Assembly: GCA_016283195.1 (NCBI GenBank)
Contig: JAEEML010000057.1
Span: 1-40,229, forward strand
Direction of reading: 5' to 3'
Length of the DNA: 40,229 bases
Source: Deltaproteobacteria bacterium
Lineage (GTDB): Bacteria; JAEEML01
A program made the translations under genes and the position numbers. This document shows positions 3,848 through 24,355 of this stretch, in pieces. Numbering within the stretch: the stretch's first letter is position 1; each line of letters starts with the position of its first letter. The notes beneath the pieces were generated by a model, which worked only from the letters and a program-made list of their open reading frames with translations, had not been told where the DNA came from and did not search any database.

Positions 3848-4813
3848 TCATAGCGCGAGTTCCATAGTGCTCTCTGCTCCTCTGGGTGAAATTTTAATAA
3901 AACTCTTTTGATTGCCCTTAGTTACTATATCGCCCGGCTCCAGATGGCCCAAGATGAGCGGCGAGTCCGGGTTGTGCAGTTTATAATTTTCGCGGGCTTT
4001 TTGGTGATCTTTAGTGGCATAGCAATATTTGCAGCCGTTTAAACAGGTATTATAGGCGCTGATGTCGCGGCTTTCGATGCAGTGGCAGCCACTACGCGTG
4101 CCCCTATGCTTAATATCGCGGAAGCTAAGGCCATTGGCCCGGCCCAGCATCTCCAGAGTCAGGCAGCCGGACTTTTGAATGCCATAGCGGGAAAAATCGC
4201 CGTTTGTGCCGCAGGTTTGGATATGGAGCTTATGGCGTGCGGCTATTTGGCCCAATATTTGGGCCAGAGTGTCCATTTCGCTATCGGACATGGGGTAGAG
4301 CTCCGGCATATTGTTTTCCAGCTTTTTATACATCTCCACAAAGCTGAAAATTACCCGGCTCACATGGCCGGCAAGGCGCCCGGCCATATACTCAAAAGTC
4401 TCGCGGTGGGCCTTAATAGTGTATTTTTTCGTGAGCAACACCGGGTCATAGCGCCAGCAAAGGCGCTCGGCGCCCACCAGCTTTTCCAGCTCGAGAAGAG
4501 TGGCTATGCTTTCGTCGATAGATGGCACCAATGGCTCTATATCCGGCCCGTAAGCTGTGATGGTATAATGAAAAAATGTATTAAAACGGCTGGTTATCTC
4601 ATGAAGATGAGGCAGAATAGGCCGATAATTTTTGGAGCAGAATATGATGCAGTCGATTTTATCGGGGGTCAGCTCGTAGCGCGTGACTTTATTCGGGAAA
4701 AGGGGATTTCGCACCAGCACAAAGCCCTCGGCAAAACGCTTTAAAAGCCAGGGGGTGAAAAACTGAACTGTATCGGTGCGGGCGCCGGTATTCAATATCA
4801 TGATATTACTCAC
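3848..4813 (-). CDS. DUF1848 domain-containing protein (C-terminal CxxxCxxC, radical-SAM-like)
   Basis: MILNTG.RTD start (ATG 4801 possible), WRYDP, GCHC..SRDI.AYNTCLNGCKYCYA. Confidence 0.88.
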   Translation of the reverse strand: MSNIMILNTGARTDTVQFFTPWLLKRFAEGFVLVRNPLFPNKVTRYELTPDKIDCIIFCSKNYRPILPHLHEITSRFNTFFHYTITAYGPDIEPLVPSIDESIATLLELEKLVGAERLCWRYDPVLLTKKYTIKAHRETFEYMAGRLAGHVSRVIFSFVEMYKKLENNMPELYPMSDSEMDTLAQILGQIAARHKLHIQTCGTNGDFSRYGIQKSGCLTLEMLGRANGLSFRDIKHRGTRSGCHCIESRDISAYNTCLNGCKYCYATKDHQKARENYKLHNPDSPLILGHLEPGDIVTKGNQKSFIKISPRGAESTMELAL

Positions 4814-5127: not shown

Positions 5128-5637
5128 ATGGAAGGTACTTTTACGCCTCGAGAAGCGCTGGATGAACTGGAGGCTATAATACTAAAAATGTGCCCTGAGC
5201 AGGCAGTGAATGGGCTTACAGAACTGCCGCTTATTGCTTTAAGTGGCGGTATTCATTCGGCTTTAGTTGCGGCAGCCATAAATCGCCACCTGCCGTTGCG
5301 CTCCTTTACTGTGCTTTTGCCGGGCGAGGAGCCGCCCAAAGAGCTGGAAAAGATCGTGGAGTTTTTAGGCACCACGCATACCGAATATGTGCCGAGCAGT
5401 GCAGAGCTGGCACTTTGGAAAGAAGAATACCAAAAACAGGCCGCTAACAAGCTGTCTTTTAACGATTTCCTCCTTTTTGCGGCGGCTGAAAAGCTTGGCT
5501 ATGAGACTTTTTATAGCGGGCACCATGAGACCATACCGGTTTTAAGCGGTGTAAAGAGGCGCTCGCCGCTCGCGGAAATAGCTTTAAATCCGGCAGATTA
5601 TAAGGCTATGGCTGCGCGGTATTTGCCATGTCTCTAA
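5128..5637 (+). CDS. Short asparagine-synthase C-terminal-like (PP-loop) protein, degenerate
   Basis: LIALSGGIHSALVAA..PLRSFTV..A/V..LGTTHTE resembles the SGGLDS region of AsnB; only 169 aa; GGAG RBS. Confidence 0.55.
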   Translation: MEGTFTPREALDELEAIILKMCPEQAVNGLTELPLIALSGGIHSALVAAAINRHLPLRSFTVLLPGEEPPKELEKIVEFLGTTHTEYVPSSAELALWKEEYQKQAANKLSFNDFLLFAAAEKLGYETFYSGHHETIPVLSGVKRRSPLAEIALNPADYKAMAARYLPCL

Positions 5638-6347
5638 AAGTGAACGGTGATATTTACGAAGAGAGGCCGGTAGTGCGGCGGCTTTATTTGCCGGAACTCG
5701 GCCGGCTTGAAGCGGGGAAAGTGCTGAGCCCAAGCGGTGATGAGCTGCATTATGCCACAAGTGTTCTGCGCCTAAAAGATGGCGAATATATTGAGTTTTT
5801 TGATGGCGAAGGCCATTTTGCTGAGGGGCAGATTATAAAGAGCAATAAGCGCGAGTTACTTTTAGAACTTGGTGAAATAAATCATACTCCCCCCATAGCT
5901 GCCCCTTTTTTGGCTGTCGGCTATTGCAAGCGTTTTGATGAAGTATTGGAGAAGGCTACCGAGCTCGGAGCCGGCGCGATTATTCCCCTGAATTTGGAGC
6001 GCACGGCTATTAGCCTAAAGAGCGCCAAAGCAGACCATTTTGCCAAAGTGGTGCTGGCTGCCGCCCGCCAGTGCCGGCGCTACTATTTACCTGAAATTTG
6101 GCCGCTCACCACGCTAAGGGAACTTTTGCAGCAAATTCCCCGGCCGGCGGTGGCTCTGCCCCACGGGGCGCCCATGAGCAATTTGCCCGAAAAACCTAAA
6201 TGTCTGCTTATTGGGCCGGAGGGCGGTTTCAGCCCGGCCGAAGTGGCGCTCTTTAAAGAGCTTGAACTTCCGGCTTTTGGTCTTGGGCCGCATATTTTGC
6301 GCGTCGAAACGGCGGCGGCGGCCAGTTTGGCAGTTTATTGGCAGTAG
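5628..6347 (+). CDS. rsmE: 16S rRNA (uracil(1498)-N3)-methyltransferase
   Basis: HY..SVLRL, EKATELG, A.RQCRR, LIGPEGGFS, LGPHILRVETAA. Confidence 0.95.
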   Translation: MSLKVNGDIYEERPVVRRLYLPELGRLEAGKVLSPSGDELHYATSVLRLKDGEYIEFFDGEGHFAEGQIIKSNKRELLLELGEINHTPPIAAPFLAVGYCKRFDEVLEKATELGAGAIIPLNLERTAISLKSAKADHFAKVVLAAARQCRRYYLPEIWPLTTLRELLQQIPRPAVALPHGAPMSNLPEKPKCLLIGPEGGFSPAEVALFKELELPAFGLGPHILRVETAAAASLAVYWQ

Positions 6348-6355
6348 ATTAAAAA

Positions 6356-6535
6356 TCAGGTCGGCCCAATCATGCCGTAATTGGCTTCACATTCCCAATC
6401 AAGCTTGGATTCTGAAGGGTCACAGCCGCAAAGTGCCATATCCGAACAGAGTGGTTCGGTGTTAATTTGCGGTTTTACATAAGGTTTTTTATCCTTTAAA
6501 GCGGTGTCTTTATTTTTTTGCAGCTCGTTATTCAT
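6356..6535 (-). CDS. Putative RiPP precursor peptide, 59 aa (not in the ORF track): MNNELQKNKDTALKDKKPYVKPQINTEPLCSDMALCGCDPSESKLDWECEANYGMIGPT
   Basis: Manual translation of the minus strand; AGGAG RBS 6 nt before ATG, overlapping the upstream TAG; KKPYVKPQI leader motif; 4 Cys; PqqD gene in the same operon. Confidence 0.8.
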   Translation of the reverse strand: MNNELQKNKDTALKDKKPYVKPQINTEPLCSDMALCGCDPSESKLDWECEANYGMIGPT

Positions 6536-6544
6536 TTTAAACTC

Positions 6545-9500
6545 CTACCAATAAAGATGGAGAGCGCCGTTGCCGTTTATGGCTTCGCTGACAATAAAGG
6601 CACCCAGCGCATCGCCCATAAAATTATTGATATTAACTATTGTGCGGCCAAAGGCAAAAGCCTGATTTGTAGAAGCAGTGCTGCCATAGAGGAAAGAATC
6701 TATCTTAAAGGCAGGCGCTGAGTCTAATAAATCAATATCAGCAATCATAACTGTAGCTACAGTGGGCGCGCCAACCGCAATTTCGACACGGTTATCACCA
6801 TCTATATCGCCAAGAAGTGCCAGAGAGCCGCTATATTGACCAAAGCTGGTAAGAGTGGCGGCGGCAAAGTCTTTACCGGAGAGAGTGGCACAAGGATCTG
6901 CCAAAAGGCCATTTTCGCTGCCACAATATAATTGCACAGTGCCATTATAGCTTAGGAGCAAACTATCAGCTTGCTTGCCGCTCATTGTTCCCGGCAGAGT
7001 GACTAAATTGGTGACCATTGTACCAACTGTTATTTCCCTGATAGCTTGGGCAGGTGTGTAATTCTTTTCTGTTAGTGGCCCATGATAAATATGCAGGGCT
7101 TTTCTATCGGCATTAGTGGTGACCAAATCGGCTTTGCCGTCGCCGTTGAAATCGCCGGCAGCTACCAGGAAGCCGTAATTGCCTTCAGCGGTGATAGTGA
7201 CATCCGGCTGCTTTTCGCCGCTACCATCGGTGGTGATTATAACATCACCTGTGGGGAAGTTGCTGCCGCCGTAATAAATGAATACAGCTTTTCCGGTATT
7301 GCTGCCGATGATGAGATCACCCTGACCATCGCCGTTTAGATCGGCTATAGCTGTGGATACACCAAAGGCTGCAGCTGCTGCCGGTGAATCGTAGTAAAAA
7401 GCTGTTTGGGGCTCATAATTCGGCTGATAAACATTAGCTACTTGTTTGCCGGTAAAATTACTGGCCAAATCATAGCCGCTATAAACAAAGACGGCACCAT
7501 TAGCTATAGCGCCGTTATTAATGTTTGGCATGGAGTTAGAGCTGATAACCAAATCGGCATGATCATCACCAGTTAAATCGCCTTTATGTGCTCCGGAGAG
7601 TGGGGCGGCGGCAATGCTGTAGCCAAGATAAGGACTTCCCGGCGTGTTTTCGGTTAAATTAAAGGTATAGCTCGGGGCAGGTTCTCCGCCGTTTGCTATA
7701 TCTTGCGCTCCGGAGAGGAAGAGATCAACAGCGCCTTTGCCGTTAAGATAGCGCATTGCTGCGACGGCAAAATCATCGCGGCCGTCGTTATCAATATCGC
7801 CGACATTAACCATCGCCGAGCCATAAGAAGCCATGTTGTCTCTTGAGCTTAAATAAGCCGGAGAGGTGTTGTCGCGCCCTTCGCTCTGAGTGCCGTCCAG
7901 GTGGCTGTCTTCGGGCCAGGTGCGCAGCGGTAAGACGCGTTGGCCGTTGCTATCGCCTGTTTCCGAACTGTTTTGCGCACTGTCAAGCGCTTCCACTACA
8001 AAACAATAATCCTGATGCAAGGGGAGATTTTTGAAAGTATAACTTATGGTGCCGTTTTCATCGGCGCTAAGAGAGAGACTCTCCAGGTGGGAGATGTTGC
8101 TTTCATCCAGAGTGCCGCTAAGATCGGCACAGGCTGCCAAATAGCCGAGAGCACTATAGCCCAGCGGGCGATAGCCTACTTTGTACATAGTTATGTCATT
8201 AGCTATGGCACTGTTTTCACTTTGCCAGGCGATGGTGACATGGCCATGGCGGCGTGAGCAGGTCTCTTCTTTGCATATAGAGGAGCAAATATCGGGCTCC
8301 AGATATTTGGCGCTATTGTCATCCGGTGGGTTAGTGCTCTCTCCCAAACAAATAAGCGGCTTAATAGGAGCCGGCGGCATGGTATCAACCAGAGCAATAA
8401 TAGTTTCAGCTACAGCTTTCGCGGAGATATTACCAGCTTTGTCGGTGGCCGAGAGGCTTAAAGAGTGTTTTTCGCCGGCCGGCAGACTTGGTACTCCTAA
8501 ATTGGTAAATATAGCCAGACAGTGATGATTATTGTCACAAGCTGTTGTGCGGGTGGCAGCGCCGCTAAGAGGATAATCAGGCTGATCGGTCGAAATGGTA
8601 ACCAGCTGATTTTCTTCGATATTAGATACCTCAGCCACTAGCGCTGTGCGGCTTGTGTTAAGGCCGTTCTCATGGATGCCGTCGCCACGCAGCCAGTCTA
8701 AAGAGGCATTCCACAGCGCTTCGCCGTTTATGCCGCTTTCGTTATAGGGAACATTAAATTCTTTAAGACCGCCCAGAATGTCGTTGCCGACCCGGCGCCA
8801 GGTTATCGTCGGAGCATCTACATCGGCTACTAAACCGTTAATAATGCGGTGGCCGATTAAAGAGCCGCCTTTGGTTAGCGATATATCCAGAGAATTGTAA
8901 ATAGCTGTTTCTTGCGAAAGCTCAAGATTTACCCCGCTTATCAGTACTGTGTTGTTGCTGCTAACTGTGCCGCTGACCTCGCGCTTACCGGCTGGGCTTT
9001 CAATGGAAAGGGTGACATTAGCTCCGCTGAGATCGCTGCCATCGAGATTATCTACCGCTATTGTAAGGGCGGTATTTAAGAAATCCCCGGCTGGAGTTCC
9101 GTCGAGATTGCCAAAATAGCTGCCTTCTTCCACCAGGAGGCCGGTTAAGGGCTCATTGGTCTCTTTATCGGTGCGCTCCACCAAAATAAGTGCGCTGGAG
9201 ACATTATGCAAAGTTAAATAGAGCGGGTTACTGTAAGTAATATTGCCGCTGGCATCGGTGGCTTTTAATTTTACAGTGCGCTCATCGCCGGGGAGGAAAC
9301 CGGGGCCGATACCGGCTATGGCGGTAGCCAGGTTGCTGTAAGCGGTATCGAGGTCGGCAGCAGAATCAAGAGAGCTGTTGAAGACGATATCGGTAATGCC
9401 GTCCATTTCACTGATTAAAGAAAGAGTGCAGGGGCAACCGGCGACATTAACCAGCAAATCATTGCTGGAGGTGTCAAGGTAACCATAGCCGAGCGGGCGG

Positions 9501-12500
9501 TTGTCACCGCCGGTGACAATATTAGCTGTGCAGGAACCGCTTGCCTGACAGTTTAAGCTGGTGCCGTTTTGCTCTAAAACCAGGTTAGCTGTTGGGCCAA
9601 GATAGTCGATATGATATTCTGTTACGGCGGAATGCACCTCATTTTGGCCGATATCAGTCATCGAAACACTAATTGTATTTATGGTTTCGTTAAGTGTATC
9701 TTTTTGCAAGAAGGGCACATCAAAAGTTAAAATAGCCTCTTTGCCGCTGGCGGTTAGTGTGCGCTCTATTTGTGCTACATCGCTGCCGCTCGTGCGCGAA
9801 AGCACAACTTTACTGCCATTTAAAGCAGAACCGTCGCTGATGATAACTTGCACCGGCATCATGAGGACTTTTTGCCCTTCATAAGTGGCAATGGTGCCAT
9901 CCTGGGCGGTGTAGAGGCTCTTGGCCGGAGTGGAAAGCTCTACGCTAGGCAAGCTGGAATCAACGTAAACGGTATAAGATGATAATTCATTGATTGCATT
10001 TTTGTTACCGTTTTCATCTTCCACTACCACCTGGAGATGATGGGTGCCTTCAGCCAAATTTAGCGTCAATTTTGATTGGACATCATTAGAAACGGAAGTG
10101 CTGCCGACCAGACTATTGGGGCTGGGATTATCGCTATATACGCGGAGCATGGTTTTTTGGGAAAGCCCGCTGACTTCGGCAGCGGCACTCACGGCAAAGC
10201 CGCTTGCTCCGGCTATGCCTTCCTTTAATGTGGAATTAAAGACCAAAAGGTTTTCCGTATCGTTCTGCGTTTTATTGTTTATAAATTCAAATTTTTTAAG
10301 CTCCGGCGGCTCGGTATCCACTATAATGGAACGCATATCAGAGGCAGTAGAAATATTTAAATCACTGTTTTCTATGGCGACATATATCTCTTGAGAGCCT
10401 TCCGGCAAGGTGGCATCGGTAAAGAAAACGGTACTGCGCCTTAGAGAGCCATTATTGGTAGAGGTGGCTAAAACATAGCCGCTGCCTACCGGGCAGAGCT
10501 CGCTGGCGGTACCTTTAAGCGATGAACAGAGGTAGGCCGGTGAGCCCTTAGGATAACCAAAAGCTATAGCGGTAAATTCGGTTTGATAACCGGGGATATT
10601 CTTTTTGAGATCGGTGGCGGCATTGAATTTGGCATTGATAGCCGGAGCGGTGATGCTAATGGCATTGAGCTCGGTGTTAATGGAGAAGGAATAAGAGAGC
10701 TCGCTCTTATTGCCAAAAGAGTCGCTGACTACAAAAAGCGCTGTATAACTGCCGCCGTCAAATGGAACATCATTGAAGGCATATTCGAAAATGCCATTGC
10801 CGATAGCTTTGGGCAAAGCTACTAAAACAGGATCCATATCGGGCACATTAAGCGGAGGTTCAAAAGATAAGTAACCGATATCATTATTAATATCTCCCTG
10901 TACCCGGTAAGAGAATTTGAGCGCTATATCATCGGTTGTCATGGTGACATCATCTTGGACGCCAAATTCGCTACGCGTCGGATCCGGTTGGGCCTGGCGG
11001 ATAACGGGTGCTTTGGTGTTGGCGTTTAAAGTGATACTGAGCGGATTACTGCGGTTGCCGGCGCAATCTAAAAGGTAAGCATTTAAGACAGTTTGGCCTT
11101 CGGTGGCTTCGGCCGGCAAAACGGTAACATCGTAGAAAGTGAGCGAACCGCCGTCGCCAAGTGGCAGAGTAGCGCGGAAGAGCTCTTCGCCGCCGGTAAA
11201 GGAGCTGATAAGTTCCACGCTCATGTTATATAAATTGGGCTCGGTAGTGTCGATGGGCATTTCCAGGGTAACATTTTGTTGCAAACCCTCTTCGTCGCTA
11301 TTGGTATCTATGCTGCTTTGACCAAGAAGAGCGCCATCTTGAGGGGCAATAAAGCGGGCCGAACCGGCGATAGTCGGCGGCGTATTATCAATGAATATTC
11401 TTATTGTTTTGGAGACGGCCACATAGCCGGAATCATTTTCGCAGGTGACATATATGTCGTTTTGTCCGGTGGCCAAATTTCCTACTGCTTCAGCGCTAAA
11501 AGATAGAGCGCCGTCGCTGGAGGAGGGATTTACGGCTAAGGGATTTTTGGAGAAAGCGGTGGCCTCGGCGGCTTTACTCCAGAGGTGGCAATTATAAGAG
11601 CTTATCGATTTGCTGACCGGATCTATAGCGCCGCTTATGACGAGATTATCACCGGCGGCGCAACTACCGCCGCCGTTAAAGATGGTGATATTGTGGCTAA
11701 AGGAATCGATTTTTAGCTCAATAATTTCCGCGCTTTGATTGCCGGCTTCATCGGTGGCTATAACCTTGAGTTGATAGCGACCAAAGGGGAAAATCATTTT
11801 TCCAAAATCAAAATTTAAAATATCGCCGTTATTTATGAGTTCTTTTTGGGCAACAGGCGTAAGTGTGCCGCCTTGGGGATTAGTGAGTAGATCAATAGTT
11901 AACTTAGAGCCGACAAATTCGCCGCTTTGCCGGGGATCGATGCTGACGACAACAGGAATGGCAAGGCCCTCGTCATTCGGCAAGAGCTCCGGATGGAGAG
12001 CGCTTTCAAATAAGGCACTATCTAAGGGACTGGCCAAAGAAAAGATCGGCGCTATGGAATCAATATAAAATTCAATGGCTTTTTGCGCGATGTTGCCGGC
12101 GGCATCTTTAGCCGAAACAGTTAGTACATAAGCTCCGTCAGCAAGGTTTAAGGTGGCAGAAACAGTACTATTTTCGCTGGTAAAGGTGCTTAACGAATTT
12201 TCTGTTATGTGGCTCTCTTTGCGGCGCACCTCCAGAGTTACTTCCGTGCCGGCCTCTATGCCGCTTAATGTGGCGCTAAAATTCAGAATATTATCATTAA
12301 TATATGCGCCGTGGGCCGGGCTTAAATCACTAAAGACCGGGGCTTGGCCGTCGGCCAACAAAGCTAGAGGAATGGAAGAACTTTTTTGCTCATCATTGAC
12401 TACAGCCTGGATATAACGAGTTACAAGGTCATTTTCGCCGGCATAGGTCAGAGAGACATCTTTGAATGTGTAAAGGCGCATTTTACCTTGGACAGTGCTT

Positions 12501-13423
12501 AGAGCTTCGCGGTAGGATATGACTTTCCCGTTTTCAAGATCAGTTAATGAATCCGCTACATTAAGAACAATATCGGCTGCCGGTGAGCAATTTGTTTCCA
12601 CGGTCACGGCTATTTGTAAACCGGCCAAATCGCTATTTGTATCATCGCGGGCCAGGTAGGTATTGCTCTCACTTAGATTGATTTTTAGGCGGCATTTACC
12701 GGTGTCAACATTTAAAATAGTGCATAATTCCTGGTGATTAAGGCAATCTTCTTGGCCTAAAGAAGGCAAATTTTCCCGCAGGCCGTAGAGAAGGATATTT
12801 TCACCTTCTATGAGGGTTACATCGTGATATGTTGCTTTGCCGCTTGCTTCTATTGTATTGTTTTTAATAATTTTGTCATTGACTGAAAGATAAACAGCTT
12901 GTTCGCTGGCGGCATCATCGCCCTGACAAACAACGGTGATATCCTGTTGCAAATAGGGCATTTCACTGTTGCTGTCTTCGGTGATGGTGTAGCCGGGCTG
13001 GGGCCTAGCCAGGCGACAGAAAGTGCTGTTTTCATCGGCAAAAACAGTAAAATTGGCGCTGGTTCCTTCATAGAAAATGGTAAGTTCATTGCGGCCGGAA
13101 GCCAAGGTGTAATCGGGAAATTCAACCACGCCGTTATATAAAGTAGCTTTGCTTAAAACGGAACCGGGGGCTTTATTTTTCAGGCTGATTTTATTGCCGC
13201 TCTCAATGCCGCCGATTCTGGCGGTGATAGTGGTTTGAATATGGTCTTTTTCAAGGTTTTCATCTTGAAGAAAAGTGAGAGTAGAGCCATCGGCCGGCGT
13301 GACGAGGCCGATAGCGGTTTCACGCTCTGGCAAAGGGTCCGGAGTTTTGCGGCATGAATTAATAAAAAAAGAGGAAACTAATAATAAAAAAGCAAAAGAT
13401 TTTATGCTGTTATTGTAATTCAC
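6545..13423 (-). CDS. Giant surface lipoprotein with Ig-like repeats, an FN3-like domain and C-terminal FG-GAP (integrin-alpha-like) repeats
   Basis: Signal peptide ending FINSC; many D-x-A/S-G-N Ig motifs; VTIAW..Y.V.Y..YTFKNL..DYCFVVEALD; GDIDNDGRDD, GDLTGDDHAD, ADLNGDGQGD, GDFNGDGKAD, GDIDGDNRVE; GAAAGGA RBS before GTG. Confidence 0.85.
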   Translation of the reverse strand: MNYNNSIKSFAFLLLVSSFFINSCRKTPDPLPERETAIGLVTPADGSTLTFLQDENLEKDHIQTTITARIGGIESGNKISLKNKAPGSVLSKATLYNGVVEFPDYTLASGRNELTIFYEGTSANFTVFADENSTFCRLARPQPGYTITEDSNSEMPYLQQDITVVCQGDDAASEQAVYLSVNDKIIKNNTIEASGKATYHDVTLIEGENILLYGLRENLPSLGQEDCLNHQELCTILNVDTGKCRLKINLSESNTYLARDDTNSDLAGLQIAVTVETNCSPAADIVLNVADSLTDLENGKVISYREALSTVQGKMRLYTFKDVSLTYAGENDLVTRYIQAVVNDEQKSSSIPLALLADGQAPVFSDLSPAHGAYINDNILNFSATLSGIEAGTEVTLEVRRKESHITENSLSTFTSENSTVSATLNLADGAYVLTVSAKDAAGNIAQKAIEFYIDSIAPIFSLASPLDSALFESALHPELLPNDEGLAIPVVVSIDPRQSGEFVGSKLTIDLLTNPQGGTLTPVAQKELINNGDILNFDFGKMIFPFGRYQLKVIATDEAGNQSAEIIELKIDSFSHNITIFNGGGSCAAGDNLVISGAIDPVSKSISSYNCHLWSKAAEATAFSKNPLAVNPSSSDGALSFSAEAVGNLATGQNDIYVTCENDSGYVAVSKTIRIFIDNTPPTIAGSARFIAPQDGALLGQSSIDTNSDEEGLQQNVTLEMPIDTTEPNLYNMSVELISSFTGGEELFRATLPLGDGGSLTFYDVTVLPAEATEGQTVLNAYLLDCAGNRSNPLSITLNANTKAPVIRQAQPDPTRSEFGVQDDVTMTTDDIALKFSYRVQGDINNDIGYLSFEPPLNVPDMDPVLVALPKAIGNGIFEYAFNDVPFDGGSYTALFVVSDSFGNKSELSYSFSINTELNAISITAPAINAKFNAATDLKKNIPGYQTEFTAIAFGYPKGSPAYLCSSLKGTASELCPVGSGYVLATSTNNGSLRRSTVFFTDATLPEGSQEIYVAIENSDLNISTASDMRSIIVDTEPPELKKFEFINNKTQNDTENLLVFNSTLKEGIAGASGFAVSAAAEVSGLSQKTMLRVYSDNPSPNSLVGSTSVSNDVQSKLTLNLAEGTHHLQVVVEDENGNKNAINELSSYTVYVDSSLPSVELSTPAKSLYTAQDGTIATYEGQKVLMMPVQVIISDGSALNGSKVVLSRTSGSDVAQIERTLTASGKEAILTFDVPFLQKDTLNETINTISVSMTDIGQNEVHSAVTEYHIDYLGPTANLVLEQNGTSLNCQASGSCTANIVTGGDNRPLGYGYLDTSSNDLLVNVAGCPCTLSLISEMDGITDIVFNSSLDSAADLDTAYSNLATAIAGIGPGFLPGDERTVKLKATDASGNITYSNPLYLTLHNVSSALILVERTDKETNEPLTGLLVEEGSYFGNLDGTPAGDFLNTALTIAVDNLDGSDLSGANVTLSIESPAGKREVSGTVSSNNTVLISGVNLELSQETAIYNSLDISLTKGGSLIGHRIINGLVADVDAPTITWRRVGNDILGGLKEFNVPYNESGINGEALWNASLDWLRGDGIHENGLNTSRTALVAEVSNIEENQLVTISTDQPDYPLSGAATRTTACDNNHHCLAIFTNLGVPSLPAGEKHSLSLSATDKAGNISAKAVAETIIALVDTMPPAPIKPLICLGESTNPPDDNSAKYLEPDICSSICKEETCSRRHGHVTIAWQSENSAIANDITMYKVGYRPLGYSALGYLAACADLSGTLDESNISHLESLSLSADENGTISYTFKNLPLHQDYCFVVEALDSAQNSSETGDSNGQRVLPLRTWPEDSHLDGTQSEGRDNTSPAYLSSRDNMASYGSAMVNVGDIDNDGRDDFAVAAMRYLNGKGAVDLFLSGAQDIANGGEPAPSYTFNLTENTPGSPYLGYSIAAAPLSGAHKGDLTGDDHADLVISSNSMPNINNGAIANGAVFVYSGYDLASNFTGKQVANVYQPNYEPQTAFYYDSPAAAAAFGVSTAIADLNGDGQGDLIIGSNTGKAVFIYYGGSNFPTGDVIITTDGSGEKQPDVTITAEGNYGFLVAAGDFNGDGKADLVTTNADRKALHIYHGPLTEKNYTPAQAIREITVGTMVTNLVTLPGTMSGKQADSLLLSYNGTVQLYCGSENGLLADPCATLSGKDFAAATLTSFGQYSGSLALLGDIDGDNRVEIAVGAPTVATVMIADIDLLDSAPAFKIDSFLYGSTASTNQAFAFGRTIVNINNFMGDALGAFIVSEAINGNGALHLYW

Positions 13424-13436
13424 AATAAAATCCTTT

Positions 13437-13727
13437 CTAAGCGCCCCGGGGCTCGGTAATCAGTTTTTTGGCCTTTAGATTGGCCAAAAATTCACTTATA
13501 TCATTTTGGGCCTCAGCTTCATCGACATCATAAGCAGCAGTTAGAGCCCGGGCCAGTTTATCCGGTGATTGCGGCTCTTTAGCTAAAAGATTCCATAAAA
13601 AAGAAGCTGTATCGTTAAGCAGATGAACTTCGCCGCCGCTGATACCGATGATGATGGTTTCGTCACCAACGGTGCGGAAAGCGATGCGTTTATCCGGTTG
13701 CCAGGTTTTGTTGCTCTTATTGCTCAT
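13437..13727 (-). CDS. PqqD-family protein (stand-alone RiPP recognition element)
   Basis: 96 aa; FRTVGDETIII, LNDTASFLWNLL, L...YDVDEAEAQNDISEFLANLKAKKLI. Confidence 0.9.
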   Translation of the reverse strand: MSNKSNKTWQPDKRIAFRTVGDETIIIGISGGEVHLLNDTASFLWNLLAKEPQSPDKLARALTAAYDVDEAEAQNDISEFLANLKAKKLITEPRGA

Positions 13728-13786: not shown

Positions 13787-14923
13787 CTATTTATGCAGAG
13801 TTATGAGGAGTATTTCGCTTTGTGAGCCCATACGCATTGGTGGCCCCCAAAAGCCGGTACCTTGGCTGACCAGTAACTGGGTATGGCCCACCCGGTAGAA
13901 GCCTTTAAAATATTTTTGCACACTTTTTACAAAAATGGTCCAGGGCCAAAGCTGGCCGCCATGAGTGTGGCCGGTGAGTAAAAGGTCTATACCGTAGTTT
14001 TGGGCTTCATCAGCTATATTTGGTTGGTGGGCCAGGCCGATGACGATAGCGGAGCCGGGAATGCCGGCGGTGGCTCTGGCAAGGTCCGGGCCGTGGCCGG
14101 AATAGCGTGCGGCACTAAGGTCATCCACTCCGGCCAGATAAATAACCGCTTCACCTTTGCTAATGGCTATATGCTCGTTAAAAAGCACTTTTAGGCCTAC
14201 TTCCGGCAAAAATTTCAGCCAACCATCGGCATCGCTGATATATTCGTGATTGCCGGGAACAAAAAATGTGCCGTAAGGTGCTTTTAAATCTTTTAACGGT
14301 AAAAGCTCGTTTTTTATCAGATGGGGCATACCGTCGGTGAGGTCGCCGGTGATGGCTACCATATCCGGTTTTAAGGCCATAGTTTCGCTGACGCGTTTTT
14401 CTAGCCACTTGTGGTTTAGCACCGCGGCAATGTGGAGGTCACTCAACTGGGCTATGGTAAAACCCTCAAAATCGTTAGGTAAATCTGGAAGATGAATATC
14501 ATATTTAGTGATTTGCGGCTCGCCGACAGCCTCATCCATGGCAATGGCGCAAGAGATGGTGGCGATGAGTACCGATAAAGCGGCTCGCAGAAGCGGCCAG
14601 TAGCTATAGGTACCTAAATTGATATGCGCTAGGTAAGTTAAGGCCAAAGAGATAATATCTATAGCCAAGAGAGTTATGGTAATAAAAACCAGCATCCCCA
14701 TCCAGGTGTAAGCGACATAAGCCAGCGGTTCCTGCCTTTTTAGCGGTAAATAACGGCTTAGGATAAAAGAGAGAATGGCAGAAAGTCCCAGCAAAATAAT
14801 GATTCCGGTGCCGATGTAACGCGGGAGGCCGGGCGGGGTGACACTATAAACGAGGCGTTGCCAGATATAGAGGTGGACGCCGGTTACCATGACGGAAAAA
14901 ACAACTAAAAAAAGGATGTACAT
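13787..14923 (-). CDS. Membrane-anchored metallophosphoesterase (YkuE/YaeI-like)
   Basis: N-terminal TM helices; SDLH, TGD, GNHE, LAHQP, GHTHGGQ. Confidence 0.92.
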   Translation of the reverse strand: MYILFLVVFSVMVTGVHLYIWQRLVYSVTPPGLPRYIGTGIIILLGLSAILSFILSRYLPLKRQEPLAYVAYTWMGMLVFITITLLAIDIISLALTYLAHINLGTYSYWPLLRAALSVLIATISCAIAMDEAVGEPQITKYDIHLPDLPNDFEGFTIAQLSDLHIAAVLNHKWLEKRVSETMALKPDMVAITGDLTDGMPHLIKNELLPLKDLKAPYGTFFVPGNHEYISDADGWLKFLPEVGLKVLFNEHIAISKGEAVIYLAGVDDLSAARYSGHGPDLARATAGIPGSAIVIGLAHQPNIADEAQNYGIDLLLTGHTHGGQLWPWTIFVKSVQKYFKGFYRVGHTQLLVSQGTGFWGPPMRMGSQSEILLITLHK

Positions 14924-15863: not shown

Positions 15864-16616
15864 TTATTTACATTCCCAATCATCTGGATCACGGGGATTG
15901 GTCTTGGTGGCCACCATGGATGTACAGCCTTCCTGAAAGAGAAAAACGGCCCCGGCCGGCCAGTGCCCGGAAATTACGGCTGCCCCCAAAGAGCTAGTCG
16001 CTACCGTTTCGCTGGCCCCATCGGCAGAAGCAGCAACTTCGGCTAAGCCGGCTCCGCCATCATCACTATTGCCATCGCTACTGCCATCACTACTGCCATC
16101 ACTATTGGCGTCACTGTTAGCATCACTGTTAGCATCACTGTTAGCATCACTGTTAGCATCACTGTTAGCATCACTGTTAGCATCGCTGTTGGCGTCGCTG
16201 TTAGCATCGCTGTTGGCATCATTTGACCCATCAGTCCACTTTATATAACTGCATATTTTGGCGGGATTTTGAAACTCGCTGTTAACTACCAAAGCGAGCT
16301 CACCGTTAATTGCTAAATCAAATTTTGCCAAAGGCAAATCTATCTTTACCTGACCTGGTGATAGTTCTATGGCCTGGCAGGCGCCGAATTGACAAAGCGC
16401 ATAGCTCTCCTTAGGTTCCTCATCACTAATTTGATCCAAAGTGATATAGCCGGTAGCGGCGGTTGAGGGCTTAACAGCCGAGAGATAGTGGGAGCAAAGG
16501 GCATTTTTTTCGAGAGCTACATCGTGCTGCGCCCGGCCGATACCATGGCCGTCTTCATCTTTGCAACCAATTATGCCGATAGTGAATAAAAGCGGTAAAA
16601 AGTATTTTAATCTCAT
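15864..16616 (-). CDS. Hypothetical lipoprotein with (DANS)n low-complexity repeat
   Basis: Signal peptide ending IIGC; internal 12-bp tandem array. Confidence 0.75.
   Translation of the reverse strand: MRLKYFLPLLFTIGIIGCKDEDGHGIGRAQHDVALEKNALCSHYLSAVKPSTAATGYITLDQISDEEPKESYALCQFGACQAIELSPGQVKIDLPLAKFDLAINGELALVVNSEFQNPAKICSYIKWTDGSNDANSDANSDANSDANSDANSDANSDANSDANSDANSDANSDGSSDGSSDGNSDDGGAGLAEVAASADGASETVATSSLGAAVISGHWPAGAVFLFQEGCTSMVATKTNPRDPDDWECK
16065..16232 (-). repeat. 12-bp coding tandem repeat, 14 units (10 DANS plus DGSS x2, DGNS, DGSN)
   Basis: Six identical ACTGTTAGCATC units at 16113-16184 flanked by variants. Confidence 0.95.
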
Positions 16617-23503: not shown

Positions 23504-24355
23504 CTATTCTTTGGCCAGCTCGTCATTTAAGCCCATAACCACCATATTGTGGCTATCGGCAGCTTTTATGAGCTCATCCGGGTCCAGCATGAGGCTACGG
23601 CCGGCCTCTATGCCTAAAAGAGTGGCGCCGCACTCGGCCATGTTTTTGATGGTATTAAGCCCCACAGCCGGCAGATCAAAGCGCGTATCCTGGCCCGGTT
23701 TACAAATTTTTACCAGCGCCACATCGCCGTTTTGGGCATAAGAGGCGCCGCGCTTTAAGCAATTATCGGTGCCCTCTATGGCCTCTATGGCGAGAACAAT
23801 GCCGCGGCAGACTACCACAGCTTGGCCGATATCAAATCGGCCCAGCTCTTTGGCCAAGCGAAAGCCGTATTTTAAATCGGCCAGCTGCTCTTTAGTGGGC
23901 TTACGGCGCGTCATTACGCCCAGGGGGGCCAGGGCCTCGGTCAAATAGACGGTAGAGGGGACAATTTCTATGCCATTTTGCGCAAAGACGCCGGCAATGG
24001 TGCGCAAAAGCTCATCATCGCGCTTTAAGAGCAACTTGGCCAAAAGGCGCATGGTGGTATAGTCTATGGGCTGTACTTGAAAAAAGCGTTCCTTTTTGAC
24101 ACCGCCGGCCATAGCGGCAAAATGCACATCATGTTTTTTGAATAATTTTAGCATTTTGCCGAGGCGTCCCACTTCTACCCAGTAAAAGTGTGCGACTTCG
24201 CTCTCCAGCTCCGGCGGTGTTTCGCCCTTGATGGCGAGAGCTATAACCTCTTTGCCGGCTGCTTTGGCCGCTTTGGCAAAAAGCAGGGGAAAGCGCCCAT
24301 TGCCGGCGATAAGGCCGATGCGCGGCGCCGTTTCCAAGGTGCTATGCTCCGACAT
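23504..24355 (-). CDS. lpxI: UDP-2,3-diacylglucosamine diphosphatase LpxI
   Basis: GLIAGNGRFP, DIGQAVVV, AIEAIEGTD, KPGQDTRFDLPAVG; follows lpxA. Confidence 0.93.
   Translation of the reverse strand: MSEHSTLETAPRIGLIAGNGRFPLLFAKAAKAAGKEVIALAIKGETPPELESEVAHFYWVEVGRLGKMLKLFKKHDVHFAAMAGGVKKERFFQVQPIDYTTMRLLAKLLLKRDDELLRTIAGVFAQNGIEIVPSTVYLTEALAPLGVMTRRKPTKEQLADLKYGFRLAKELGRFDIGQAVVVCRGIVLAIEAIEGTDNCLKRGASYAQNGDVALVKICKPGQDTRFDLPAVGLNTIKNMAECGATLLGIEAGRSLMLDPDELIKAADSHNMVVMGLNDELAKE

Follow-up and report, generated by a model that had tools for sequence, protein, structure and literature searches.

A conserved 59-residue peptide gene behind a giant adhesin gene in a deltaproteobacterial genome: a probable precursor for a PqqD/radical-SAM pathway with separated genes

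Introduction

In the pathways for pyrroloquinoline quinone (PQQ; PqqA/D/E) and mycofactocin (MftA/B/C), a small precursor peptide is accompanied by a free-standing PqqD-type chaperone and by a radical S-adenosylmethionine (rSAM) enzyme that carries a SPASM domain and no recognition element of its own. The genes of such pathways for peptides that are made on the ribosome and altered after translation (RiPPs) are normally clustered. The SynChlorMet (ScmC, ScmD, ScmE/F), HPr-rel-A and HprK-related systems have a parts list like that of the cassettes described below (a free-standing PqqD, a short rSAM/SPASM enzyme without a fused RiPP recognition element (RRE) and an HprK-related P-loop protein), a comparison that rests on NCBIfam names. 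Discrete RREs of the lasso type are reported to recognize the leader motif [Y/W]xxPx[L/V/I/F/A], and YxxP is reported to be required for binding both in lasso systems and in a family outside the lasso class, the linear polyphosphorylated peptides (LPP) (PMC13381572, PMC12710340). Here we analyse a 59-codon open reading frame (ORF) at positions 6356..6535 (minus strand) of a 40,229-nt stretch of deltaproteobacterial DNA, contig JAEEML010000057.1, labelled C90 within its genome. The whole stretch is called the window, and coordinates are window positions unless another contig is named. The ORF is a real, conserved gene, and it probably encodes the precursor of an rSAM/SPASM RiPP pathway in which a free-standing protein of the PqqD type recognizes the peptide.

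The peptide gene and its junction with the giant gene

The 59-aa peptide, MNNELQKNKDTALKDKKPYVKPQINTEPLCSDMALCGCDPSESKLDWECEANYGMIGPT, contains four cysteines. Its Lys-rich leader, with the motif Y19-x-K21-P22-x-I24, is followed by E-P-L-C-S-D-M-A-L-C-x-C-D, K44 and C49, and it has no signal peptide. The gene is defined by ORF translation, by the family alignment and substitution pattern, and by the hidden Markov model (HMM) of cassette peptides described below. On the minus strand the start codon is preceded by ...TAT TGG TAG GAG TTT AAA ATG. In this junction (TAGGAGTTTAAA, 6536..6547, minus strand) an AGGAG site, which ends 6 nt before the ATG (6535), lies over the TAG stop of a 2,292-aa ORF (6545..13423, minus strand). 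The product of this long ORF is a giant surface protein with Ig-like and FG-GAP repeats, called the adhesin below. Since the AGGAG overlaps the stop of the giant gene upstream, translational coupling of the peptide gene to that gene is suggested. By our count, about 10 of the 27 window genes have a GGAG-type site 9–15 nt upstream, and the organism therefore uses such sites. At the other end, the peptide gene stops 8 nt from the stop of the convergent gene rsmE (5628..6347, plus strand; RsmE family). Promoter and terminator counts around the peptide gene are not above the shuffled expectation.

A first-pass annotation, made from the letters of the window, had described this arrangement, and the AGGAG over the stop of the giant gene, the 59-codon ORF on the minus strand and the 8-nt distance to the rsmE stop are all found in the sequence. 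It gave the leader and the four cysteines of the peptide correctly and dropped the residues ‘NT’ between ...KPQI and EPLC.... It also held that the gene had been missed, which is true of an ORF track with a 60-aa cut-off and not of protein collections: the exact peptide and one relative are already public, so that the gene was hidden only from such a list.

The peptide matched no family in Pfam, NCBIfam and PDB sequence searches. Its AlphaFold2 model (pLDDT 56.7) is too poor for a fold search, and the best score in an ESM Atlas search, 0.86, is a lead only.

Conservation and selection

Searches among billions of proteins found five relatives with 42–76% identity to the window's peptide. A word-indexed search yielded one of them, P0002 (74% identity by BLASTP, 76% in the alignment). 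Six matches at E ≤ 0.001 came from an exhaustive profile search over 1.84 billion representatives; P0002, P0005 and P0006 among them are true small relatives, and the other three, which are long repeat proteins, were rejected as spurious. The further relatives P0014 and P0015 came from a profile search of a 5.8-billion set. The six-member alignment has 20 invariant columns: M1, K16, Y19, K21, P22, I24, E27-P-L-C-S-D-M-A-L-C36, C38, D39, K44 and C49. The frame and the YxxP motif are kept in all five relatives, and the earlier annotation's description of an RiPP-type precursor with a charged leader agrees with a leader that is Lys-rich and has YxKPxI invariant in the family.

The closest relative, P0002, lies on a 3.1-kb contig (L021) that is syntenic with the window. 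It carries, in order, the C-terminus of the adhesin (...GALHLYW), the junction TAGGAGTTTAAAATG, which is identical in the two sequences, the peptide gene, the convergent rsmE and a small PP-loop-like ORF. Among the 58 sense codons that align, 21 pairs are identical, 23 synonymous and 14 non-synonymous; for residues 26–59 the corresponding numbers are 13, 16 and 5. By the Nei–Gojobori method the peptide gene has a pN of 0.16 and a pS of 0.87; for rsmE the two values are 0.105 and 0.543, and the C-terminus of the adhesin has 0.234 and 0.638. The peptide gene is under purifying selection, with a constraint comparable to that of the flanking genes.

These data bear on the alternative that a chance ORF fills the intergenic gap and is not a gene. 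The small size of the ORF, and a convergent gene whose end is only 8 nt from it, would suit such an explanation. It is refuted by the existence of conserved relatives, by the mostly synonymous substitutions, by the distribution of differences from L021 over codon positions (11/10/31, the count for position 2 including the stop codon) and by the conserved ribosome-binding site.

A 342-nt contig of the gut-metagenome run X2 spans the entire ORF with one base different, which we place at the third base of the Pro28 codon. Small shares of the window were found in each of 16 runs from 11 studies, mostly labelled as gut metagenomes, and in run X1, one of four that were aligned, 10 of 16 contigs match the window at ≥99% identity. 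The peptide family is rare: a comparison with 60 sampled genomes gave no significant match (best E 0.106), peptide patterns run twice over a collection of species-representative genomes picked up no relative, and a search at the level of the phylum returned the peptide's own genome alone.

A PqqD protein as the likely reader of the leader

The gene for a discrete, 96-aa RRE of the PqqD family (PF05402, 65.7 bits) is located at 13437..13727 on the minus strand, where the first-pass annotation had put it. Five genes are tightly packed on this strand, in the order dapA, a metallophosphoesterase gene, the PqqD gene, the giant Ig/FG-GAP gene and the peptide gene, so that the giant gene sits between the PqqD gene and the peptide gene. 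No other PqqD is encoded in the genome, as judged from a family search and from an HMM of 15 foreign cassette PqqDs, which gave this protein 84.0 bits. In NCBIfam it is most similar to lasso PqqD models (37.7 and 36.7 bits, below cut-off), and it falls just short of the HPr-rel-A PqqD model (34.3 bits, cut-off 35). The nearest solved chains are TbiB1 (E 9.4e-8), 9x90_B, TfuB1 and 9x8z_B, all ahead of true PqqD.

The leader segment YVKPQI of the peptide matches [Y/W]xxPx[L/V/I/F/A], and Y19, P22 and I24 are invariant in the six family members. The statement of the first-pass annotation that Y-x-x-P-x-L/I is a leader motif bound by PqqD-like RREs, with lasso B1 proteins as the best-known case, accords with the published reports (PMC13381572, PMC12710340). 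A co-fold of the PqqD protein with the peptide scored 0.53 over three runs, the best of three controls scoring 0.02, and the verdict was ‘weak support’. In the calibration, 116 of 157 solved complexes and 2 of 215 mismatched pairs attained the mark; only 18 of these 157 complexes scored 0.60 or less, as did both of the passing mismatches. The runs share at least 89% of their contacts, with a partner pLDDT of at least 53. As the sole RRE in the genome, of the right type, in a common operon with the peptide gene and with a weakly supportive co-fold, the PqqD protein is the likely reader of the YVKPQI leader. The proposal that the peptide is the substrate of the neighbouring PqqD therefore stands in the form that this protein is its likeliest reader.

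Both the YxxPxI leader motif and an RRE that is closest to lasso B1 proteins would be expected of a lasso-peptide precursor, to be cleaved and cyclized by B2 and C enzymes. By our reading, if the Tyr is taken as position −17 the core would start at the invariant C36 and would have Glu at position 7 in three of the first four members. Position −2, however, would be Ala34 and not Thr, and the genome, estimated to be 100% complete, lacks the enzymes: its three matches to Asn_synthase (PF00733) are the NAD synthase NadE, QueC and a 169-aa PP-loop-like ORF of the window, none of them a cyclase, and the B2 protease family PF13471 has a single sub-cut-off match (25.6 bits), to an ORF of 526 aa that lies on a different contig. 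The genes that adjoin relatives of the PqqD protein are, moreover, rSAM genes and not cyclases. A lasso peptide is largely refuted and very improbable here, and the lasso analogy drawn in the first-pass annotation fails beyond the RRE and the leader motif.

Cassettes around PqqD relatives in other genomes

At E ≤ 1e-5, a profile made from the PqqD protein and two close relatives had matches in 53 of 400 other sampled genomes. The 20 best PqqD loci (L053–L072), from 18 genomes, were annotated with HMMs built for this analysis and with NCBIfam. A gene for an rSAM/SPASM protein of 326–385 aa adjoins the PqqD gene in 15 of these loci; seven of the 15 supplied the training sequences of the HMM and eight are independent matches (E 7e-81 to 1e-120). 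A gene for an HprK-related P-loop protein, weakly similar to ScmC and HprK_rel_A/B, is found in 13 of the 20 loci, and a clear small peptidase similar to archaeal-type signal peptidase I in four. A cassette of PqqD, a short rSAM/SPASM enzyme and an HprK-related protein, often with a small signal-peptidase-like protein, recurs in unrelated bacteria; examples are L063:5255-7785, L061:2340-5833 and L072:422-3373. Four foreign cassettes (L058, L061, L067 and L068) have the order PqqD, HprK-related, rSAM, peptide; L061 and L068 are the two in which the rSAM gene was found to be followed by a motif peptide.

Nine of the 15 rSAM loci contain an adjoining small ORF with a Lys-rich N-terminus, the motif Y-x-K/Q-P-x-I/L and a Cys-bearing tail; eight were recognized by pattern and one (L066) by HMM alone. 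Their leader stretches include KKSKYIKPQIKSE, RKPYKKPELVYS, KRKYVKPEIKSE and KKYLQPKIVYE, and the consensus leader of the cassette precursors is [KR][KR]xYxKPx[IL]. One of these peptides, in genome G014, is encoded about 1 kb from the PqqD match of that genome and had earlier appeared as a weak blind match of the window's peptide (E 0.13). In an alignment of 17 peptides all have P22, 16 have Y19 and 16 have K21, and MALCGC of the window's peptide aligns with ...FLACGKC and ...ALSCGKC. The first-pass annotation had expected a radical-SAM/SPASM modifier: its expectation is supported in so far as PqqD relatives adjoin such enzymes elsewhere, and not for the locus itself, which has no rSAM gene, the candidate being on another contig.

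Two further peptides in this set (L057:4047-4178 and L069:3749-3874, both minus strand) combine a leader of the form KKKYxKPx[LI]KKNEPLxNITFA with a tail that is rich in Gly and Thr and lacks Cys. Each is about 2 kb away from a PqqD gene, no cassette-type rSAM gene intervening, and they may belong to a different enzyme class that uses the common leader.

Candidate partner genes elsewhere in the genome

HMMs derived only from the cassettes of other genomes were run over all ORFs of the window's genome (3.2 Mb in 190 contigs, estimated 100% complete with 4.18% contamination). The rSAM model (15 sequences) gave 223.6 bits for an rSAM/SPASM gene on contig C182; the next scores, 126.8 and 115.9, belong to the other two rSAM/SPASM genes of the genome. 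The C182 gene is also the best tblastn match of all seven cassette rSAMs used as queries. The HprK-related model (11 sequences) found C182_14901_15779 with 54.9 bits, the next best score being 18.2. This gene lies directly upstream of the C182 rSAM gene, and by our reading its stop overlaps the Met48 start of the rSAM gene as ATGA. Its NCBIfam match to HprK_rel_B (E 6.1e-5) is far below cut-off. HprK proper is represented by one gene in the genome (202.9 bits), which we take to be the housekeeping kinase. The peptidase model (four sequences) had a single match in the genome, a 152-aa S24-like ORF on contig C28 (C28:6194-6652, minus strand; Pfam Peptidase_S24; 50.2 bits). The neighbours of this ORF are unrelated: a TonB_C-like protein, a 451-aa ORF and a 1,440-aa protein with Fib_succ_major domains.

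A model of ten cassette peptides, from which the window's own family was excluded, ranked the peptide ORF (C90_6356_6535) top among 32,917 ORFs of 25–150 aa (E 9.2e-5; next 0.34). The assignment of the peptide to the precursor type of PqqD/rSAM-SPASM cassettes is well supported by these sequence comparisons. They also bear on the alternative that the peptide is a small unmodified Cys-rich acidic protein, for example metal-binding or regulatory, tied to the adhesin, the PqqD gene and YxKPxI being unrelated to it. Such a protein would account for the coupling to the adhesin stop, which is conserved in one syntenic relative, for the invariance of the four cysteines, for the acidic tail and for the lack of an enzyme in the locus; the failure of AlphaFold2 to find a fold would suit any short flexible peptide. 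We regard it as improbable: it leaves unexplained why the leader architecture is that of peptides adjoining PqqD and rSAM genes in at least nine other genomes and why this ORF is the only match to their HMM in its own genome. Moreover, the co-fold with PqqD passed its controls, weakly, and a peptide without a signal peptide would not meet the exported adhesin.

Contig C182 has no PqqD gene, and the 460-nt gap behind its rSAM gene holds no motif peptide. The GC contents of C90 (0.480), C182 (0.485) and the genome (0.478) are alike. The cassette genes of this genome are not all adjacent: C90 carries the PqqD and peptide genes, on either side of the adhesin gene at a distance of 6.9 kb, and C182 carries the rSAM and HprK-related genes. 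Because the latter pair has neither PqqD nor precursor, the cassette looks split, and one rearrangement would explain both loci, with the outer pair left in the window and the inner pair on C182.

A dispersed cassette, with the precursor behind a 6.9-kb gene and away from the enzyme, could also be the remnant of a broken one, the peptide no longer being processed and the C182 rSAM enzyme acting on something else or on nothing. The lack of observed expression (the single contig of the one RNA run lies on the adhesin gene) would agree with this. A remnant would hardly be expected to show the strong purifying selection on the peptide gene (pN 0.16, pS 0.87), a PqqD protein that is conserved at 65–73% identity in two relatives with its core invariant, and a peptide core that stays invariant in six sequences although their overall identity falls as low as 42%. 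This explanation, too, appears improbable.

Other modifying enzymes were considered. Three YcaO genes (C105:2659-3633, C31:42334-43293 and C61:10817-11788) were set aside, no link to the peptide being found. One of them is followed by a TfuA gene, forming a thioamidation-type pair that adjoins a Ser/Thr kinase with a PEGA domain, with no precursor evident. An rSAM/SPASM gene on contig C103 was rejected as the modifier as it adjoins a Beta_propel protein that is taken as its own partner. In this locus (L031:5372-8638) the TIGR04133-like rSAM gene (289 bits, cut-off 425) comes directly after the gene for a 713-aa Beta_propel (PF09826) protein, and the two probably form an enzyme–substrate pair. 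The remaining rSAM gene, on contig C70, is cut off at the contig end. The only match to MNIO/DUF692 in the genome has an E value of 0.03, and LanC has none.

Comparison with known systems

The logic of the proposed pathway is that of the PQQ and mycofactocin pathways, and the precursor sequences of those systems are unrelated to the window's peptide. The PqqD protein scores 17.7 bits against the model for true PqqD (TIGR03859; cut-off 46), and the C182 rSAM enzyme scores 67.4 bits against MftC (265) and 77.8 bits against PqqE (381.35). For a sactipeptide or ranthipeptide, with cross-links from Cys sulfur to carbon, the signs are the four invariant cysteines of the peptide and a weak similarity of the C182 rSAM enzyme to the StsB and AlbA models, below cut-off. 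The best NCBIfam names for the cassette proteins include ScmC, ScmE, HprK_rel_A/B and the HPr-rel-A PqqD, again all below cut-off: the window's PqqD reaches 14.2 bits of the 100 needed for ScmD, and the C182 rSAM 74.9 of the 400 needed for ScmE. With such scores the cassette proteins are not members of the SynChlorMet or HprK-related families. The present genes also differ from those systems in being split over at least two contigs, with the precursor placed after a giant adhesin gene.

Lasso B1 proteins (TbiB1, TfuB1) are the nearest solved relatives of the window's PqqD and have a similar leader motif (PMC13381572, PMC12710340). Lasso systems differ in their partners, for this genome is without a B2 protease and a macrolactam cyclase and the partner enzyme type is rSAM/SPASM. 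The LPP family (PMC13381572, Nat Commun 2026) is described as a RiPP family outside the lasso class in which a lasso-like discrete RRE and a YxxP leader are used again. As a further point of likeness, the cassettes described here also carry HprK-related genes and small archaeal-type signal peptidase I-like peptidases. The LPP leader motif, YxxPxVLxHQxIxFETxxS, is longer and is not matched by the window's peptide. No rSAM enzyme appears to be described for LPP clusters, since the main text of that report does not contain ‘radical SAM’, ‘rSAM’ or ‘SPASM’. Limited literature searches, which did not cover the supplements of PMC13381572, found no publication on the peptide motif or on the PqqD/rSAM/HprK-like cassette. 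The new elements are a distinct family of precursors whose core is invariant and a dispersed layout with the precursor coupled to a giant adhesin gene.

Proposed pathway

From the sequences and the co-fold model, the YVKPQI strand of the Lys-rich leader would dock onto the PqqD protein, whose gene lies 6.9 kb upstream on the same strand. PqqD would then hand the peptide to the short rSAM/SPASM enzyme of C182, whose translation appears to be coupled to that of the HprK-related P-loop protein, and the enzyme would modify the acidic four-Cys part that starts around EPLCSDMALCGCD. We lean slightly towards the view that the C182 rSAM and its HprK-related partner modify the peptide in trans. The small S24/S26-type peptidase encoded on C28 may remove the leader, which is speculative. 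For the chemistry, Cys-based cross-links are a first guess, made because of the four invariant cysteines and the enzyme class, and the thioethers to which the first-pass annotation pointed are likewise a guess; the kinase-like partner leaves phosphorylation open. What forms one cassette elsewhere would here be divided, the outer pair (PqqD and peptide) flanking the giant adhesin gene and the inner pair lying on another contig. The giant surface protein itself is probably outside the peptide-modifying chemistry.

Several observations weigh against this pathway. Enzyme and substrate would have to act in trans between contigs, which departs from the usual clustering of RiPP genes, and no peptide-modifying enzyme, in particular no radical-SAM gene, was found by Pfam and NCBIfam annotation among the genes of the window. 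The two loci may not even share an organism: in an assembly of 190 contigs with 4.18% estimated contamination C182 could belong to another one, and the like GC contents of C90 and C182 do not prove a common origin. The C182 rSAM is only 24–30% identical to the cassette rSAMs in tblastn. The leader motif is common, [YW]xxPx[LVIFA] occurring in 5.7% and YxxPx[LI] in 1.1% of 5,233 random 45–75-aa ORFs of the genome, and the peptide HMM test is partly circular, because its ten peptides were chosen with the motif from the window's peptide. The weak co-fold pass may reflect likeness, since RRE–leader complexes have already been solved. Among the 15 rSAM cassettes six have no motif peptide, the contig ending soon after the rSAM gene in two of these, and nothing in the other cassette peptides corresponds to the strongly conserved EPLCSDMAL segment and its extra Cys. 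The genomic context of the family covers one of the five peptide relatives, P0002, with P0005, P0006, P0014 and P0015 outside, as are the PqqD relatives P0010 and P0011. Finally, the RNA run X15 contributes a single 182-nt contig, which lies on the adhesin gene, and none over the peptide ORF.

Other genes of the window

The N-terminus of the 2,292-aa protein, ...LLLVSSFFINSC, is lipobox-like by eye, and its C-terminus is conserved in L021. Directly upstream of the PqqD gene, the metallophosphoesterase gene (13787..14923, minus strand), LpxG/YaeI-like with scores below cut-offs, is separated by 59 nt from the PqqD gene and by 8 nt from dapA. Its Metallophos match spans residues 156–322 of 378. 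It may not be the lipid A enzyme, because the window also encodes LpxI (23504-24355, minus strand). Most of the remaining window is devoted to outer-membrane and lipid A housekeeping (TamB, BamA, Skp, LpxD, LpxA, LpxI).

The 169-aa ORF at 5128-5637 (plus strand) overlaps the start of rsmE and is weakly similar (E 2.7e-7) to the PP-loop region of asparagine synthase. Where the consensus for the PP-loop reads SGGxDS, this ORF has SGGIHS. It is 64% identical in the syntenic L021, and its AlphaFold2 model (pLDDT 48.6) is too poor for a fold search. A DUF1848 protein (3848-4813, minus strand; 311 bits), which is not syntenic in L021, has a C-terminal C-x3-C-x2-C (CLNGCKYC) that resembles a radical-SAM cluster motif, in an unusual place. 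The sole matches of a 250-aa ORF at 15864-16616 (minus strand) are short (about residues 128–207) and far below cut-offs, to models of staphylococcal MSCRAMM adhesins; we take them to be low-complexity matches.

Implications

A conserved precursor and its recognition protein without an adjoining modifying enzyme, the best candidate enzyme pair being on another contig, make up an unusual layout. Genome-mining tools for RiPPs seek tight clusters, and cluster-based mining would miss both halves of the present system. The leader [KR][KR]xYxKPx[IL] offers a handle for finding further precursors and a defined substrate for tests of enzyme chemistry. The Lys-rich YxKPx[I/L] would be a lasso-type recognition motif reused in a non-lasso pathway, similar to the reuse reported for LPP (PMC13381572).

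A wider interpretation is that of a RiPP pathway with scattered genes. Here the precursor and PqqD genes would bracket the 2,292-aa adhesin gene and be co-transcribed with it, the rSAM enzyme, its kinase-like partner and the leader peptidase would be encoded at two other loci, the output of peptide would be tied to adhesin expression, and EPLCSDMALCxCD would mark a new product class in the widespread PqqD/rSAM/HprK-like cassette family. In this full form it is unlikely to hold; if it is true, the peptide could be a signal or a metal-binding factor that is made whenever the cell deploys its adhesin.

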